Positions 14,571 through 41,370 of a stretch of DNA of 64,000 nt are shown here, piece after piece. The stretch comes from a bacterium. Lineage in GTDB: Bacteria; Patescibacteriota; Minisyncoccia; Portnoybacterales; GWB1-42-6. Under the pieces are notes generated by a model that was not told the origin of the DNA, ran no database searches, and saw nothing but the letters and a program-made list of their open reading frames with translations. The stretch is taken from contig JAZDMV010000002.1 in assembly GCA_043800535.1 (NCBI GenBank), forward strand, positions 11,378 through 75,377. Direction: 5' to 3'. Position numbers and translations under genes: made by a program. Each line of letters starts with the position of its first letter. Positions within the stretch are counted from its first letter, which is position 1.

Positions 14571-15218
14571 TTGTTTATCGCCACTAAATTTTCTATAATA
14601 GACTATATGCAAGAAACCACCCAGAGAATAAATCTAAACTGGTCCGCCGTTGAAAAGGCCCTTGCTGAAGGAACTTTTTCTGGCTATAAAATCGGCATTC
14701 TGGAAACCGAAAAGGTATTTGACGGGTTTCTGGCCGCCAAAAAAATTCCCGGCCTCACAATTGACGCAAAAATTAAATATGTGGCTGATTTTTTAAGCCG
14801 GGCCGAACAGCTAAGATACGCCCGCCAGATGTATAAAAAAATTCTGGAACAGCCGCATTTTGAAATTTCGCGCGAGGAAACCAAACAGGTTGTTTCGGCC
14901 TATTGGCAGGCAATGCTGGATCTGGAAGAAGCGCTTCAAACACTGTCCGCCTGGCAAAAAATGAATCTGCGGCTGCGCTATTTTTACGCCCAGGTCATCC
15001 GCAAAATAAAGATCATCGGAGCGGCTCTGGCCGGCTTTATACTCTTTATTTTATTCTTTAACGACACGATCCTAGGCAAAAAAATAATCATCAACATCGG
15101 CAAAAGCGTTCATTTTCTTGCTTTCACGGCCGGCCCATGGATTTTGGGAACGGTTGCCGCCGCCGTGCTTTTGTGGCTGGGCATGAAAGTGCTTGGGAAA
15201 AAAAGACCGGAATTTTGA
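14571..15218 (+). CDS. hypothetical membrane protein
   Basis: Two C-terminal TM helices. No family recognised. Confidence 0.45.
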   Translation: MFIATKFSIIDYMQETTQRINLNWSAVEKALAEGTFSGYKIGILETEKVFDGFLAAKKIPGLTIDAKIKYVADFLSRAEQLRYARQMYKKILEQPHFEISREETKQVVSAYWQAMLDLEEALQTLSAWQKMNLRLRYFYAQVIRKIKIIGAALAGFILFILFFNDTILGKKIIINIGKSVHFLAFTAGPWILGTVAAAVLLWLGMKVLGKKRPEF

Positions 15219-15342
15219 TTTAAAATTTAGTTTCGAGAAAATCGCCATCCAAAAATTTTGTTTTAAATTCAGGCCGAGGCGAGCGTAAAATTTGCGTGTT
15301 TATGCCTTTGGGCCCCGCAGCAGCGGGGTGCATAGCAAATTT

Positions 15343-15425
15343 AGTGAGACGAGGCCTAGAATTTATCAAAATTTTATGGCTGGCGAGAGCTTTTTGGCTA
15401 CTTTTTGTCGACACAAAAAGTAGCT
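15343..15425 (+). repeat. repeat family D copy 3 (partial) with hairpin gctactttttgtcgacacaaaaagtagc
   Basis: Matches the tail of copies 1 and 2. Confidence 0.55.
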
Positions 15426-15448
15426 TAATAAATAATGAAATTTACTCA

Positions 15449-15541
15449 CTTACACCCCGTAAATCCCGCTACGCGGGACACGGCGTAAAGCCGCGAGGCG
15501 GCCACGCCGCTTTTCGCGGGGCAGGCGTCCACTATATAATA
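15449..15541 (+). mobile_element. about 95-bp GC-rich element inserted at the dnaE start codon; the 18-nt start segment is directly repeated on both sides
   Basis: atgaaatttactcacttacac at 15427 and atgcctaaatttactcacttacac at 15542 flank the insert. The first copy encodes MKFTHLH then hits a stop. The element shares cccgtaaatcc and gcgtaa.gc.cga blocks with 40196-40300. Confidence 0.5.
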
Positions 15542-18500
15542 ATGCCTAAATTTACTCACTTACACGTTCATAGTCATTACAGTCTTCTTGACGGTCTGCC
15601 AAAGATCGACGAGCTTATTGACCATGCGCTGGCGCAGGGAATGGATTCACTTGCCTTAACAGACCACGGCTCGCTTTACGGCGCAGTTGAATTTTACAAA
15701 AAAGCCAAAGCCAAAGGGCTAAAACCGATTATCGGCTCAGAAATGTATATTGCGCCGGGCGGCATGCTTAACAAGCGATCTAGAATTGACGACAAACGCC
15801 ATCATCTTGTCGTTCTGGTTAAAGACAAAACCGGTTATGAAAATCTCGTTAAACTTACAACCAAGGCATGGCTTGAGGGATTTTATTATAAACCGCGCAT
15901 AGACAAAGAGCTCCTGCGCCGGCATTCAGGGGGTCTGGCCGCCCTTTCTGCCTGCATAGTCGGCGAAATACCTTCGGCTATCAGAAATGGTGACCCCAAA
16001 AAAGCGGAGGCGCTGGCCGAAGAATACCAGGATATTTTTGGCAAAGGAAATTTTTTCCTGGAAATAGAACATCATCCTGGAATTAAAGAACAGGAACAGG
16101 TCAATCAGGAAATCATAAAAATCGGCAAAAAATTAAAAATTCCTATTGTCGCTACCAACGACGTACATTATTTAAAGCCCGAAGACGCCGAAGCCCAGGA
16201 TATCTTGATGGCGGTCAACACCAACGCCGCGCTTGATGCGGGCGAACGCCTCTCCATGCGTTCGGACGACTTTTCACTTAAATCGCCCCAGGAAATGGCT
16301 GATTGGTTTCCGGCCACACCCGAAGCGATTGAAAACACCCAAAAAGTAACTGGTCTGTGCAATTTTGATTTTACGCTCGGCAAAATCCAGCTGCCTGAAT
16401 TTAAAGTGCCATCCGGCAAGTCCGATTTTGAATTTTTAAAAGAACTTGCCTATTCCGGCATCAGCCGGCGCTACAAACAAACTTCCAAAGAAATCCTTGA
16501 TCGTCTGGAATATGAACTTGGCGTCATCAAGCAGACCGGTTTTGCTTCTTATTTTTTGATCGTCCAGGATTTCGTCAACTGGGCAAAGGAGAATGGTATT
16601 GTTGTCGGGCCAGGCCGCGGCTCAGCTGCGGGGTCACTGGTCGCCTATCTTTTAAACGTCACCGACATTGATCCCTTAAAATACGACCTCCTGTTTGAGC
16701 GGTTTTTGAATCCCGAAAGAATTTCTATGCCTGATATTGATATGGATTTTTCCGATATCAGGCGAGGCGAAGTGATAGATTACGTACGAAAGAAATATGG
16801 AGACGACCATGTGGCGCAGATCATTACTTTTGGGACAATGGCTGCCCGCGCCGCTATCCGGGATTCGGGCCGCGCCATGGGTTATTCCTACAACTTGTGT
16901 GACCAGGTGGCAAAAACCGTGCCCTTTGTTGTCGGCCAAACGCTCGAGCGCGCGCTGCATGAATCAATTGAGCTACACCAATTATATGATTCCGACGAAC
17001 AGGTTAAAAAATTAGTTGATACGGCCATGAAGCTTGAGGGCGTGGCGCGCCATGCTTCAACCCACGCCGCCGGCGTCGTCATCACAAAGGAGCCGCTTGA
17101 AAAAACCGTGGCACTCCAGCATCCAACGCAGGACGACGCCACAATTGTTTCTCAATTTGAAATGCACGCAATTGAGGATTTGGGCCTTTTGAAAATGGAC
17201 TTTTTGGGGTTGAAAACCCTGACGCAGATCGAAAACGCCATTAATATCGTCAAAAAAACCAAAGGAGAAACAATTGATTTGCCCAACCTGCCGCTAGATG
17301 ACAAAGAAACATTTAAGCTCCTGCAGGAAGGCAAGGCCACGGGAGTTTTCCAGCTGGAATCAGGCGGAATGAAAAGAGTTCTGCGCGAACTTAAGCCGAC
17401 CGAATTTGAAGACATAATTGCTATAGTTGCGCTCTATCGCCCTGGTCCAATGGACCTTATCCCGGAATTTATTGCCCGCAAACACGGCCTTAAAAAAATT
17501 GAATACCTGCATCCTTTACTTGAAAAAATCCTCAAAAAAACCTACGGTATCTGTGTATATCAGGAACAATTGATGGAAATTGCAAAAGAACTGGCCGGTT
17601 TTTCACTCGGCGAGGCGGATGTTTTAAGAAAAGCTGTCGGCAAAAAAATCAAAAAACTGCTGGATGAACAGCGCGAAAAAATGATCCAGGGAATGACGCG
17701 CGGCGGCATTGACACAAAAACCGCCGAAAAGATCTGGGAATGGATTGAACCATTCGCCCGCTACGGCTTTAATAAATCGCATGCCACCTGCTATGCATTA
17801 ATCGGCTATCAAACCGCCTATTTGAAGGCTCGTTATCCGACAGAATTCATGGTTGCCATCATGAATTCTGACGAAGACGACATTGAACGCATCGCCTTTT
17901 TGGTCAATGAATGCAATGCAATGAAAATAGAGGTCCTGCCACCCGATATTAATGAAAGTTTGGAAAGTTTTACTGTTGTCAAAGACGGAATAATCCGTTT
18001 CGGGCTGGCTGCGATAAAAAACGTCGGGCAAAATGTCGTTGAGGCGATCGTGCGAGAACGCAAGGCCAATGACCCCTATGCTTCAATCTCGGACTTTGTC
18101 GAAAGAGTGCGAGACAAAGATCTGAATAAAAAATCCCTGGAAAGCTTGGTTAAATGCGGGGCCATGGATAAACTCGGCGAACGCGGCCAGCTGCTTTTCA
18201 ATATGGAACATATCCTCGATTTTTCACGCGAAATTTCCAAATCAAAAATCAACGGACAAAGCGGTTTATTTGACGCACTGGCGGCCGATTCAAAAATCAA
18301 CGGCCTGCCACCGCTAAAACTGCAACCCGCGCCTGAGGCCGGCAAAAAAGAAAAGTTATCATGGGAGAAAGAACTACTTGGTCTTTATGTTTCAGAACAT
18401 CCCGTCAAAGAGTATCAGGCCTATATAGATAAAACAGCGCTCACCTGCTCGAAAGTTTCTTCGCAATTTGTCGGCAAGAAATTGGCCGTTGGCGGAATTA

Positions 18501-18745
18501 TTTCTAAAATACATAAAATAATCACTAAAACTGGCAAGCCGATGCTTTTTGTCACGCTTGAAGACACAAAAGCAAAAATTGAAGTTTTGGTTTTTCCGCG
18601 AACTCTTGAACAAACCGCCACTGTCTGGCAGGAAGACAAACCAATCATCGTGACCGGCCGGATTGACGATAAGGAAGGAAATATAAAGCTGCTGTGCGAG
18701 GAAGTGCGGGAATTAAACCAAAATCATCTAAAAAACCAATACTGA
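15542..18745 (+). CDS. dnaE: DNA polymerase III alpha subunit
   Basis: MPKFTHLHVHSHYSLLDG PHP domain, then polymerase core and OB fold. The ORF-track start at 15296 is a read-through of the inserted element. Confidence 0.9.
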   Translation: MPKFTHLHVHSHYSLLDGLPKIDELIDHALAQGMDSLALTDHGSLYGAVEFYKKAKAKGLKPIIGSEMYIAPGGMLNKRSRIDDKRHHLVVLVKDKTGYENLVKLTTKAWLEGFYYKPRIDKELLRRHSGGLAALSACIVGEIPSAIRNGDPKKAEALAEEYQDIFGKGNFFLEIEHHPGIKEQEQVNQEIIKIGKKLKIPIVATNDVHYLKPEDAEAQDILMAVNTNAALDAGERLSMRSDDFSLKSPQEMADWFPATPEAIENTQKVTGLCNFDFTLGKIQLPEFKVPSGKSDFEFLKELAYSGISRRYKQTSKEILDRLEYELGVIKQTGFASYFLIVQDFVNWAKENGIVVGPGRGSAAGSLVAYLLNVTDIDPLKYDLLFERFLNPERISMPDIDMDFSDIRRGEVIDYVRKKYGDDHVAQIITFGTMAARAAIRDSGRAMGYSYNLCDQVAKTVPFVVGQTLERALHESIELHQLYDSDEQVKKLVDTAMKLEGVARHASTHAAGVVITKEPLEKTVALQHPTQDDATIVSQFEMHAIEDLGLLKMDFLGLKTLTQIENAINIVKKTKGETIDLPNLPLDDKETFKLLQEGKATGVFQLESGGMKRVLRELKPTEFEDIIAIVALYRPGPMDLIPEFIARKHGLKKIEYLHPLLEKILKKTYGICVYQEQLMEIAKELAGFSLGEADVLRKAVGKKIKKLLDEQREKMIQGMTRGGIDTKTAEKIWEWIEPFARYGFNKSHATCYALIGYQTAYLKARYPTEFMVAIMNSDEDDIERIAFLVNECNAMKIEVLPPDINESLESFTVVKDGIIRFGLAAIKNVGQNVVEAIVRERKANDPYASISDFVERVRDKDLNKKSLESLVKCGAMDKLGERGQLLFNMEHILDFSREISKSKINGQSGLFDALAADSKINGLPPLKLQPAPEAGKKEKLSWEKELLGLYVSEHPVKEYQAYIDKTALTCSKVSSQFVGKKLAVGGIISKIHKIITKTGKPMLFVTLEDTKAKIEVLVFPRTLEQTATVWQEDKPIIVTGRIDDKEGNIKLLCEEVRELNQNHLKNQY

Positions 18746-18940
18746 AACTCATTATTGACAACTGCCCGGGAAACCGATATTCTTATATTACAAGAGCAAT
18801 GACACGGCCTCACCAACCCTTCGACAGGCTCAGGGCAAGCCGCCCAAAAGCATGTCAGACATTGTTCTCGCAGGATACCGGCGAAATAGGCGCCAAAAGT
18901 GGTCCCGCGTAGCGGGGCAACTTGGGTGGAACCACGGGTA

Positions 18941-19000
18941 AAAAAATAACCCCGTCCCAAGAACTTGCTGTTTTAGCGAATTCTTGAGACGGGGTTTTTG
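18941..19000. terminator. bidirectional intrinsic terminator
   Basis: ccccgtcccaagaa...ttcttgagacgggg stem flanked by A-run and T-run. Serves dnaE (+) and the convergent Zn-ribbon gene (-). Confidence 0.6.
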
Positions 19001-19005
19001 TTGGT

Positions 19006-19230
19006 TTATGCCGAGAAAATAAAGTCGGCGCAAAAGTTACCATCGAGTGTTATCGCGCTCTGAAAGAGAATCCTGCTGCCGCATTTTTCACAACCAGAAA
19101 CCTTGCTCGGCTTAACAAGAAACGTGAACATTCTCGACCTTTCGCCAAATGGCACTTCTTCCATTTGACCCTCAATCTTGATATCCCCTCCGCAATTTAT
19201 ACAAGGAACTTTAATATAGTTTTCCATCAT
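19006..19230 (-). CDS. small zinc-ribbon protein
   Basis: CINCGG ... CEKCGS pairs. Confidence 0.5.
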   Translation of the reverse strand: MMENYIKVPCINCGGDIKIEGQMEEVPFGERSRMFTFLVKPSKVSGCEKCGSRILFQSAITLDGNFCADFIFSA

Positions 19231-39728: not shown

Positions 39729-40103
39729 CTATTCTGACTTCCGCAGAGCGAAAAATTCAGCCGCTAAAACCAGCACCAGCAAAACCAAGCTGCTTTCCCA
39801 CCAAAAAATACGGTATGTGCGCAAAAAAAGCGAACCGGCCAGAAGCAACGAAAGAAGCGTCCCTTGCCTGAAAGAAATACCCAAAAATCCCGAATGGCTA
39901 TGACTTCTGTACTTTTTTACGCGGGCCAAAAATCCAAATAAGCTAAAAAAACCGGCCAGGCCGATAAACAAACTGAAAAACAAAAGGCCAAGCACAAAAG
40001 CATCGGCGGCTTCGGGCGAAAAAAATCCTACTATTAGAAAAAAAGACGCCAGTGCCAGAACCGTAGTGAAAATGATGCCGGCAAGATAAAGTTTAAGGGT
40101 CAT
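39729..40103 (-). CDS. hypothetical integral membrane protein (4 TM)
   Basis: Highly hydrophobic 124-aa ORF. Confidence 0.5.
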   Translation of the reverse strand: MTLKLYLAGIIFTTVLALASFFLIVGFFSPEAADAFVLGLLFFSLFIGLAGFFSLFGFLARVKKYRSHSHSGFLGISFRQGTLLSLLLAGSLFLRTYRIFWWESSLVLLVLVLAAEFFALRKSE

Positions 40104-40169
40104 ATGTATATTTTACAAAATAACTGACATATTTACAACCAGACTACGCAAACAAGAGCTTGCTTAATC

Positions 40170-40199
40170 ACGACTTTTAATGTAGAATACAGGAGTATT
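40170..40199 (+). promoter_or_regulatory. sigma70-like promoter TTGCTT-17-TAGAAT for the tRNA cluster
   Basis: ttgcttaatcacgacttttaatgtagaat. Predicted transcript start is near the start of the 40196-40300 element. Confidence 0.45.
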
Positions 40200-40300
40200 T
40201 ATCGCGGGGTAGATCCCGTAAATCCGCCAGGCGAATCATGGGATTTATTACCAAAGCGTAATGCGCGACTTATGTCGCGTGATGAGCGTAGCGAATTATA
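40196..40300 (+). ncRNA. GC-rich leader element related to the dnaE-start insert; possible small RNA or precursor leader
   Basis: cgcggggtagatcccgtaaatccgcc...gcgtaatgcgcgacttatgtcgcg hairpins. Its 5' end mimics the tRNA acceptor 5' strand gcggggtag. Confidence 0.3.
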
Positions 40301-40306
40301 CGCGAC

Positions 40307-40378
40307 GCGGGGTAGAGAAGAAGTATCTCGGGGGTCTCATAAGCCCCAGACCCCGGTGCAATTCCGGGCCCCGCAACA
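40307..40378 (+). tRNA. tRNA-like sequence, anticodon CAT, atypical (3-bp D stem, no GG, T-loop tgcaatt); possible pseudo-tRNA or unusual tRNA-Met
   Basis: Acceptor gcgggg/ccccgc. Anticodon stem ggggt/gcccc with loop ctCATaa. T stem cccgg/ccggg. Confidence 0.4.
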
Positions 40379-40451
40379 CTTTTGATCTGAAAAAACGCCG
40401 ATGGTTAAATGGTGACAGTGTTTAATTTTGGCGTTATATTTATTTTAGCGA

Positions 40452-40524
40452 GGCGGGGTAGCTCAACTGGTAGAGCGTGGGACTCATAAGCCCAAGGTCG
40501 TGGGTTCAACCCCCACCCCCGCTA
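40452..40524 (+). tRNA. tRNA-Met (CAT; could be Ile2/lysidine type)
   Basis: Clover-leaf: ggcgggg/ccccgct acceptor; gctc-aactggta-gagc D arm; loop ctCATaa; T arm gtggg-ttcaacc-cccac. CCA not encoded. Confidence 0.75.
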
Positions 40525-40539
40525 CAATAAGTCATTTAT

Positions 40540-40615
40540 GGACCGTTAGTGTATCCTTGTCTAACACGTCTCCGTGTCACGTAGAAGAGCGCGGGTTCAA
40601 TTCCCGCACGGTCCG
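40540..40615 (+). tRNA. tRNA-Asp (GTC), one anticodon-stem mismatch
   Basis: ggaccgt/acggtcc acceptor; T arm gcggg-ttcaatt-cccgc; anticodon loop gtGTCac. Confidence 0.6.
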
Positions 40616-40626
40616 CAATAGTTTGG

Positions 40627-41370
40627 ATGCAAAAAAATTCCAATAAAGTAATCTTTTTTGATTTATACCAAACTCTTCTTGACGTTGAACTAAGTATCAA
40701 TAATCCAAACCACGAAATCGAGGGGTGGAATATTTTTGCAAAAACTTTACTCAAATATGGTAAGGAAATTAACGGCTTGGACTTTCAAAAACTATACATC
40801 AAGACACGAGATGATTTTTATTCCAAAAAAAGTAAGAAAATTTATCACCACAATTTATTTGAGATAACGTCTAAAGTTTTGGAAGAAGATTTGGGACTAG
40901 AGCTTTCGAAAGAAGAAATAACGGAGCTGATTTATATTCATCGCAAAGCGAGCCGCGGCCATCTTCGTTTGTACCCTGGTGTTTTTGATACGCTCTCTCG
41001 TCTTTCGGAAGGATACATATTATCAACAGCCAGCCATACGCAAGGTTCATTTACGCAGCTTGAGCTACGCGAATTAAATATTGAACAATTCTTCTCTTAC
41101 TTTGTGTACAGTTCAGATATTGGATTTCGCAAAGAATCTACAGAGTTTTATAAGCGCGCCCTGGAGATTGTTGGGAAGAAAGCGGTTGATTGTGTGATGG
41201 TAGGAGACAACTACGACGTGGATGTGCTTGTGCCGCAACAATTGGGTATTCGCACAATCTGGATAAAAAATCCCAATACCGCTGATAGATATCTAATAAA
41301 AAAAGAACCTCCGAACACTCTCAGTCTTGATAGTTTCGAAGATCTATCGAAGTTGATTGAAAGAATTTAG
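40627..41370 (+). CDS. HAD-superfamily hydrolase
   Basis: VIFFDLYQTLLDV motif I and MVGDNYDVDV motif IV. Noticeably AT-richer than its neighbours. Confidence 0.65.
   Translation: MQKNSNKVIFFDLYQTLLDVELSINNPNHEIEGWNIFAKTLLKYGKEINGLDFQKLYIKTRDDFYSKKSKKIYHHNLFEITSKVLEEDLGLELSKEEITELIYIHRKASRGHLRLYPGVFDTLSRLSEGYILSTASHTQGSFTQLELRELNIEQFFSYFVYSSDIGFRKESTEFYKRALEIVGKKAVDCVMVGDNYDVDVLVPQQLGIRTIWIKNPNTADRYLIKKEPPNTLSLDSFEDLSKLIERI

Follow-up and report, generated by a model that had tools for sequence, protein, structure and literature searches.

Insertions of the IS1634/IS1549 type carry long, variable direct repeats of 8 to 514 bp (PMC2266710), and the bypass cassette of T4 gene 60, which belongs to a MobA/mobE element, is a mobile sequence with repeated insertion in an essential gene (bioRxiv 10.1101/2022.08.31.505936). 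The locus compared here with these and other systems is the start of dnaE, encoding DNA polymerase III alpha, in a 64-kb stretch of contig JAZDMV010000002.1 (the window; GC content, ~45%) from an uncultured Patescibacteria (Candidate Phyla Radiation, CPR) bacterium that is a relative of "Candidatus Portnoybacteria." A GC-rich, hairpin-forming element of ~35 to 70 nucleotides (nt), which we call E, separates two copies of the first codons of this gene. The explanation that we favor, with about an even chance of being right, is that E belongs to a small family of site-specific insertion elements that regenerate the 5' end of the gene that they enter. Such elements would lodge behind the first 11 to 21 nt of a gene, with an intact copy of the gene then following, and the window appears to hold two examples, one at dnaE and one at the initiator tRNA gene. 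The features at the dnaE start are listed here.

15435..15488, + strand, decoy upstream open reading frame (uORF) of 17 codons, the ancestral ATG and codons 2 to 7 (15435-15455) followed by E; translation MKFTHLHPVNPATRDTA.
15438..15455, + strand, copy 1 of the direct repeat (AAATTTACTCACTTACAC), from an exact-repeat search.
15455..15521, + strand, hairpin module of E, from the predicted fold.
15481..15516, + strand, nested hairpin of 36 nt, GGCGT-AAA-GCCGC-GAG-GCGGC-C-ACGCC, from alignment and folding.
15522..15541, + strand, conserved single-stranded tail CAGGCGTCCACTAT (15522-15535) and A/T linker ATAATA (15536-15541), from alignment.
15542..18745, + strand, dnaE, DNA polymerase III alpha, 1,067 amino acids (aa), with copy 2 of the repeat at 15548-15565; Pfam PHP, DNA_pol3_alpha, finger, HHH_6, and OB.

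The 18-nt repeat is exact and has only two occurrences, at 15438-15455 and 15548-15565, with a spacing of 110 nt; 100 dinucleotide shuffles gave 0 matches. The original prediction had recognized the repeat and its two copies but had placed them at 15431, which is 7 nt off, and at 15549, which is 1 nt off. It had also seen an ataATG before each copy, and both do follow AATAATG, but in copy 2 an additional CCT codon (15545-15547) separates the ATG from AAA, so that the second start is not a plain duplicate of the first. As had been read from the sequence, the first ATG (ATG1, 15435) encodes MKFTHLHPVNPATRDTA, entering the element after MKFTHLH and ending at a TAA codon (15486-15488), and copy 2 runs into an intact dnaE. 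The second ATG (ATG2, 15542) opens the 1,067-aa DnaE, with the N terminus MPKFTHLHV... and the PHP domain from residue 6. The NCBI protein of this contig (P0001) starts at ATG2 too and is identical to the DnaE of the window; an exact-protein look-up of window DnaE in its 1,067-aa form and in a longer, 1,149-aa form returned no record. The segment between the repeats (15456-15547) is GC rich, as predicted (0.63 versus ~0.45 for the window), but it is 92 nt long and follows codon 7 of the ancestral start, where a 95-bp element exactly at the start codon had been proposed.

Upstream of the repeat, two features belong to the native context of the gene.

15242..15386, + strand, long imperfect hairpin (inverted repeat), called U here, part of the native dnaE upstream region and outside the insertion.
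15397..15424, + strand, perfect 12-bp hairpin (inverted repeat), 10 nt upstream of the ancestral start.

Among the nearest homologues (80 to 84% protein identity), dnaE keeps its place in the gene order rnhB, a 201-aa open reading frame (ORF), dnaE, and thrS, and these loci allow an empty-site comparison. In loci L089 and L090, U and the 12-bp hairpin lead directly into ATGAAATTTAC...GTCCAT (ATG AAA TTT ACC CAC CTC CAC GTC CAT), with no element, and L082, L084, L086, and L087/88 also begin MKFTHLHV without one. The layout of 12-bp hairpin and ATG is common to the E-less L089/L090, L082, and L086; upstream of dnaE in the same loci U is conserved as well, with some compensatory pairs, as a structure of ~130 nt that is A/T rich at its base (AAAATTTTG.../...CAAAATTTT) and GC rich inside. 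Because this native upstream context matches that of the window, copy 1 is the ancestral start there; MKF or MRF opens 107 of the 120 DnaE homologues. The comparison shows a gain in the window of 110 bp by insertion into the ancestral start (MKFTHLHV...); these comprise E with its 14-nt tail, then a new ATG, one added codon, and codons 2 to 7 once more. The predicted insertion with a regenerated start was therefore borne out by L089/L090, while the "target duplication" proposed as its mechanism is unproven, the second start having an element-side ATG and an extra codon. A duplicated start without E, the arrangement that had been named as evidence for a simple tandem duplication, was not seen among the relatives compared, and a scan of genome contigs, with relatives at ≤58% identity, found none with a duplicated start.

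If E is an insertion element, the gene 5' end would have been restored either by a long target-site duplication or by a copy borne on the element, and the insertion would be "self-healing" either way. It could have come about through a staggered cut with an 11- to 18-nt duplication, through an element-borne 5' end, or through duplication first and acquisition of the hairpin second. The ancestral start now opens a short decoy ORF that enters the hairpin and then meets a stop, forming a structured leader, and DnaE would be made from ATG2, directly or by reinitiation of ribosomes leaving the uORF. In this genome, Shine-Dalgarno motifs are rare (11 of 58 long ORFs) and starts lie in A/T-rich sequence like ATAATAATG; ATG2 has this typical A/U-rich setting and no Shine-Dalgarno motif, so that it can act on its own.

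The element recurs in other genomes. A metagenome scan with the conserved tail CGGGGCARGYGTCCACTAT returned 22 loci, and the credible ones are all dnaE starts; the remaining matches are chance-like, in unrelated DNA and mostly in coding sequence of GC-rich organisms, as is one in L094/L101 that is intergenic and AT rich. L107 is closest to the window, with DnaE 87% identical over the first 220 residues. The L085 type (P0002), in which the hairpin differs but the architecture does not, comes from six contigs of different samples, and L095 represents a distant lineage whose DnaE N terminus is only ~67% identical to anything retrieved. (The dnaE frame of L095 is interrupted after 113 codons, at ~900-950, and goes on in another frame; a misassembly of this low-coverage contig is the probable cause.) The layout common to the four variants is ATG AAA TTY ACY CAY YTN CAC, CCCGTAAA, a variable hairpin, N-A-CGGGG (N-G-CGGGG in the window), CARGYGTCCACTAT, 0 to 6 nt, and ATG NNN AAA TTT ACT CAY YTA CAY GTY. 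ATG2 is found as CACTATG TCA, CACTATA ATG CCT, or CACTATATAATA ATG CYT, with different second codons (CCT, CTT, and TCA) and three spacings, always in frame; its retention in frame in all four lineages through three configurations argues that it is the working start.

Each of the four variants has a single dominant predicted fold, and the fold is shared (z, −2.1 to −4.4): a 6-bp stem, P1; a 3-nt AAA bulge; a triloop hairpin, P2; and a free tail. In the window, P1 pairs CCCCGT (15455-15460) with GCGGGG (15516-15521), the bulge is at 15461-15463, and P2 is TCCCGC-TAC-GCGGGA (15464-15478). P1 is invariant and P2 differs in sequence in three variants yet is paired in every one, and comparison of the window with L095 shows two compensatory pairs; these base-pair counts were made by hand, as MAFFT brought neither the L095 P2 nor the window's nested hairpin into register with the other variants, and four variants make for thin evidence of covariation. 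The nested 36-nt hairpin, which carries the uORF stop codon of the window, is missing from L107. The tail has ≤2 differing positions among the four lineages, and the 30 alignable positions of E have ≤4 differences (one between L095 and L107). Over the first 100 to 110 dnaE codons, synonymous divergence (pS) is ~0.72, which is saturated, among the window, L085, and L095 and is 0.44 between the window and L107. Copy 1 has synonymous differences only among the four E-bearing loci, and between L095 and L107 it is identical at 20 of 21 positions, copy 2 at 15 of 18; in the window the two copies are the same, probably via gene conversion. On this comparison, the insertion at dnaE is old and is neither recent nor private to the window, being present in three other lineages at saturated synonymous divergence (dS) with a near-invariant core.

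The distribution of E was set against a DnaE phylogeny, a bootstrapped neighbor-joining tree of this one protein. The E-bearing P0002 groups with the E-less P0006 and P0007 in 92% of bootstrap replicates, and P0001 and P0002 stand together in only 1.5%. As placed by the tree, the E-bearing lineages are not monophyletic and the distribution is patchy. Either E was gained several times at the exact same place or it was lost many times; precise deletion through the 18-nt repeats would restore the MKF start. Patchiness with conserved ends is compatible with a selfish site-specific element, of which it is the signature, and compatible too with a selected RNA that is easily deleted. About 10% of the homologues have 1 to 3 extra residues between Met and KFTHLH (MPKF, MSKF, MLKF, MTPKF, etc.; P0012, P0015, P0016, P0023, P0038, P0042, P0045, P0064, P0086, and P0090), and an M-X-KF N terminus served as a proxy for the presence of E in choosing loci to inspect; none of the three cases inspected (P0015, P0042, and P0045) has the element. 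Such N termini may be footprints of past insertions of E, and L081, with MPKF and without E, may represent a partial loss.

A serious rival, which we regard as possible although it falls well short of probable, is that the hairpin and the decoy uORF form a dedicated cis-regulatory leader, a selected RNA that sets DnaE translation. Ribosomes could load at the old start, melt P1 and P2, terminate at ATG2 or close by, and reinitiate, or the hairpin could bind a factor. An invariant P1, junction, and tail beside a P2 that varies and stays paired, all at saturated dS, is the pattern of a functional RNA, and copy 1, with its synonymous-only changes, is better conserved than copy 2 between L095 and L107. 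In L085 and L107 the stop of the uORF and ATG2 share the sequence TAATG, and in L095 the stop is 18 nt upstream of ATG2, but in the window it is 54 nt upstream, within the lineage-specific nested hairpin. The patchy, non-monophyletic occurrence of E and its absence from most close relatives would be strange if an essential gene needed it as a regulator. Rfam at the gathering threshold matched only 3 tRNAs in the whole window, and a permissive scan of 15150-15650 gave only noise (E value of ≥3.5), with no match for the element or for U; no terminator-like site was found between 15435 and 15542 and no alternative terminator/antiterminator fold for the element. A related element also precedes a tRNA gene, where the logic of a uORF cannot apply.

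That second locus is the initiator tRNA-Met gene of the window.

40203..40213, + strand, copy of the first 11 nt of initiator tRNA-Met, CGCGGGGTAGA, a local direct repeat.
40214..40305, + strand, related 92-nt element, from a shared 11-mer, alignment, and fold (z = −3.2).
40306..40377, + strand, intact initiator tRNA-Met, CGCGGGG...CCCCGCAACA, anticodon CAT, from tRNA identification.

The 5' 11-mer of the tRNA is duplicated 103 nt upstream of the intact gene, and after their first base the intervening 92 nt open with the CCCGTAAATCC of E, at the same place relative to copy 1. The original prediction had linked the dnaE element to 40196-40300, and the link held: a related element lies there between the 11-nt tRNA copy and the intact tRNA. 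Positions 40214-40243 can form an E-like module (P1 TCCCGT/ATGGGA, AAAT, and a small hairpin), and the element has two more hairpins, including GCGTAA-TGCGCGAC-TTAT-GTCGCGT. The best match in the window to an L095-type module is found here (score, 29; reached in 2 of 40 shuffles), and the two 92-mers, which have a second block in common, GCGTAA[A/T]GC.GCGA, align locally better than 493 of 500 shuffles (p ~0.014). Each of these pieces is weak when taken singly, and cccgtaaatcc at 40215-40225 is by itself near chance level, but the shared 11-mer is significant because of its position after a copied gene 5' end; we estimate the joint chance of finding one specific 11-mer again (0.03 occurrences expected) directly after a duplicated tRNA 5' end at ~10^-5 or less. 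A scan of 40100-40650 with Rfam found tRNAs only and no match for the tRNA leader. Because the tRNA target is not translated, the duplicated 5' end is a DNA-level feature of the arrival of the element and not a translational device. The empty allele at tRNA-fMet would read from the promoter directly into CGCGGGGTAGAG, without the 103 extra nt. Other local repeats of 11 to 12 nt in the window were rejected as element sites: they are within coding sequence and have no structured insert.

The internal sequence of E bears on an account that needs no mobile element, in which the dnaE 5' end was duplicated in tandem, the upstream fragment became dispensable, and GC-rich hairpins arose within it afterward by slippage or template switching. 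The nested hairpin opens with ACACGGCGTAAAGCC, a near-repeat of the 5' junction of E, ACACCCCGTAAATCC (15481-15516 versus 15452-15466), and MAFFT pairs its CACGGCGTAAAG with CACGGGGCAAG in other lineages; E seems, from these repeats, to grow by partial self-duplication. The tail part GTCCACTAT appears to resemble dnaE codons 8 to 13 minus 6 nt (GTCCAC[TCNCAC]TAT), and the upstream dnaE fragment may, given this likeness, extend past E, which may then lie inside the fragment. Tail likeness, partial repeats ACACCCCGTAAATCC/ACACGGCGTAAAGCC, and a nested hairpin gained in the window lineage would all suit a tandem duplication. However, the copies are not adjacent, no relative has the duplication and lacks E, and the account would explain neither the near-invariance of E at saturated dS nor why an independent duplication, at tRNA-fMet, has this same 11-mer at the corresponding junction. 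We consider the account improbable.

Hardly more promising is a site-specific integration scar, with attP-borne gene 5' ends integrated into dnaE and tRNA-fMet and the repeats as attL/attR cores. A larger element could have been reduced to ~90 nt, or a miniature derivative could have been moved by an integrase encoded elsewhere. The repeats do derive from the target gene, which stays intact, and one target is a tRNA gene; the element-side ATG and extra codon fit an attP-borne replacement end, and the conserved ends of E could be recombinase-binding sites. Yet in all four lineages only 56 to 92 nt lie between the repeats, with no integrase or cargo, and viral contigs scanned with the E tail and with the dnaE-start repeat gave 0 matches. 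The classical site of integration into tRNA genes is the 3' end rather than the first 11 nt, and circles of ~100 bp are poor recombination substrates.

The positions of the hairpin and the repeats also recall programmed translational bypassing, in which ribosomes would start at ATG1, take off from His codon 7 (CAC, 15453-15455), and land on CAC/CAT of copy 2 to give MKFTHLHV.... The take-off codon and a landing CAC (15563-15565) fall within the 18-nt identity, P1 begins at 15455, the last base of the take-off codon, copy 1 retains coding sense, and the T4 gene 60 cassette of a mobile element is a precedent (bioRxiv 10.1101/2022.08.31.505936). We nevertheless hold this to be very improbable: an in-frame ATG2, not needed for bypass, is kept in all four lineages despite indels; the take-off codon is followed by CCC and not by a stop; the nascent chain would have 7 residues, where gene 60 needs a long nascent-peptide signal; the gap is 68 to 110 nt; and the same duplication architecture is found at a tRNA gene.

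Several points weigh against the reading of E as a member of an insertion element family. The original prediction had proposed a search for more copies; in the 64-kb window, which is the part of the genome covered, and in ~1 Mb of related loci, none was found beyond the dnaE and tRNA sites, so that there are two copies in 64 kb and none in the related loci, which gives no direct sign of transposition. Apart from P1, terminal inverted repeats are absent from the dnaE copy, and no transposase or integrase was linked to the element. Boundaries that are identical in four dnaE lineages fit a single ancient event with selection as well as they fit reinsertion at a specific site, and a P2 that is wholly different between lineages argues against recent horizontal spread. 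The similarity of the dnaE and tRNA elements is modest (p ~0.01 to 0.05 by shuffling), local direct repeats of 11 to 12 nt are not rare (~10 in the window), and the empty-site comparison covers dnaE loci only and not the tRNA-fMet loci of relatives. A bolder form of the insertion reading, which we offer tentatively and think rather unlikely, would make E part of a class, so far undescribed, of very small mobile elements in CPR bacteria that are site specific and self-healing and that enter essential, highly expressed genes (dnaE and the initiator tRNA gene) just after their first nucleotides. Such a class would restore the gene 5' end, start codon included, through 11- to 18-nt target copies that its mechanism produces or carries, and would persist and spread as a conserved RNA or DNA hairpin; in a more exotic version, the hairpin would program a ribosome hop from the old to the new start region.

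Both dnaE and the initiator tRNA gene are highly essential, and entry with regeneration of the 5' end is a way in which selfish DNA could colonize the tiny, gene-dense genomes of CPR bacteria. In one step, E creates a structured leader and a decoy start before the replicative polymerase, which is raw material for translational control where Shine-Dalgarno sites are largely absent. Should the element prove to be mobile, the length and variability of its target copies would suggest a way of inserting that is still undescribed for small nonautonomous elements. For annotation, dnaE and genes like it in such genomes can carry a false upstream start, as in the frame from GTG 15296 and the ATG1 decoy. 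In the window, no stop interrupts the dnaE frame over the 82 codons before the true start, across E and U (15296-15541, + strand), which can mislead gene-calling programs; the 1,149-aa ORF from GTG 15296 was rejected as spurious, since PHP begins at residue 6 from ATG2 and the frame of E is not conserved between lineages. A promoter-like TCGACA-17-AATAAT ending at 15436 was also rejected as the dnaE promoter, since it would exclude the start codon of E-less orthologues with the same layout.

The region upstream of dnaE holds further hairpins. U could be a palindrome like those of MITEs (miniature inverted-repeat transposable elements) or a dnaE leader structure. Other relatives have a different element directly upstream of the dnaE ATG, an AT-rich palindrome with 40- to 48-nt arms (GCTACGAAATACGAA...TTCGTATTTCGTAGC).

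L084 841-1073; L087 2202-2332; L088; L095 453-540, AT-rich palindrome.

The center of the L084 palindrome has a GC-rich multihairpin insert of ~150 nt (fold z = −7.8). The dnaE upstream region in this clade is a hot spot for nested hairpin elements. Matches of the AAATTTAC type within the palindromes of L084 and L095 were discarded as copies of a start fragment, as they hold too little information. At 5886-6899 of L088, between dnaE and thrS, lies an rve-family (IS3/IS481-like) transposase gene that is absent from the otherwise identical L087; the pair shows recent insertion sequence activity in the clade, and no link of this to E was found. In the window, a T-box leader occupies 18790-18962 (+ strand), between the dnaE stop and thrS, with a hairpin to ~19000; it scores 37.7 bits versus an Rfam gathering threshold of 93 (E value, 8e-7) and so falls below the default-scan cutoff. 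Between its terminator-like hairpin and the thrS ORF (19334) are ~330 nt with a minus-strand ORF of 74 aa (19006-19230). A 15-nt match to P2 in stem III of the T-box (18902-18916, minus strand) is probably due to chance, as a palindromic stem matches its own reverse complement.

Among known systems, MITEs and small palindromic elements (Rickettsia palindromic elements, Correia, and ERIC) are like E in being short, noncoding, hairpin forming, and GC richer than their surroundings, and E shares with MITEs a patchy occurrence among relatives, flanks of target-derived direct repeats, and tolerance in a gene region. Unlike them, E was seen in 2 copies in the 64 kb covered, and its dnaE copy has only the 6-bp P1 (CCCCGT/ACGGGG) in the way of terminal inverted repeats, after which comes a 14-nt tail before the repeat; its flanking repeats of 18 nt and 11 nt are well above the usual size of target duplications and not of fixed length, the element side supplies the start codon, and its position is unchanged across lineages with saturated synonymous divergence. 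By inspection, the ends of the tRNA copy have an imperfect inverted match of 7 of 9 positions (TCCCGTAAA versus the reverse complement TCGCGTATA). To our knowledge, IS1634 and IS1549 are the only precedent in bacterial transposition for target duplications that are both long and variable in length. The repeats of E, of 11 nt and 18 nt, fall in their range, but the analogy is for the duplication only, as these are insertion sequences of 1.5 to 2 kb with a DDE transposase and inverted repeats, and E has neither such a gene nor such ends.

Repetitive extragenic palindromic (REP) sequences and REPINs, which are moved by RAYTs, resemble E in having a GC-rich palindrome, of 20 to 40 nt in their case, after a short conserved tag: CGTAAA precedes P2, the nested hairpin, and one hairpin of the tRNA element. 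REP sequences, however, have a GTAG/CGTC tag, are extragenic, occur in high copy number and in inverted pairs, and lack a long target duplication, none of which applies to E with its CGTAAA tag. A REP-like family was sought in the window, without success: CGTAA followed by a hairpin occurs 5 times versus a shuffle mean of 1.8 (maximum, 4) and GTAAA followed by a hairpin 5 times versus 3.0, and S1-GTAAA-hairpin-S1' modules and CCGTAAA contexts are at or near shuffle level. The T4 gene 60 cassette is like E in bringing its own translational solution, in its patchiness and same-site insertion, and in its conserved RNA structure, but E most likely regenerates a start with no hopping and has no homing endonuclease gene and no sequence similarity to the cassette. 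Islands that target tRNA and tmRNA genes also have target-derived repeats and element-borne gene restoration, and one target of E is a tRNA gene; E differs in its size of ~100 bp, in the lack of an integrase, and in targeting the 5' rather than the 3' end. With leader-peptide and uORF control regions E shares a short uORF and a stable hairpin just upstream of the main start, with TAATG in two lineages, but its uORF copies the first 7 codons of the main gene and has an end point that is not conserved, and E is without the terminator/antiterminator alternative of leader-peptide attenuators. On these comparisons, we file E with the small nonautonomous insertion elements, from which it is set apart in being conserved and in regenerating the target's 5' end.

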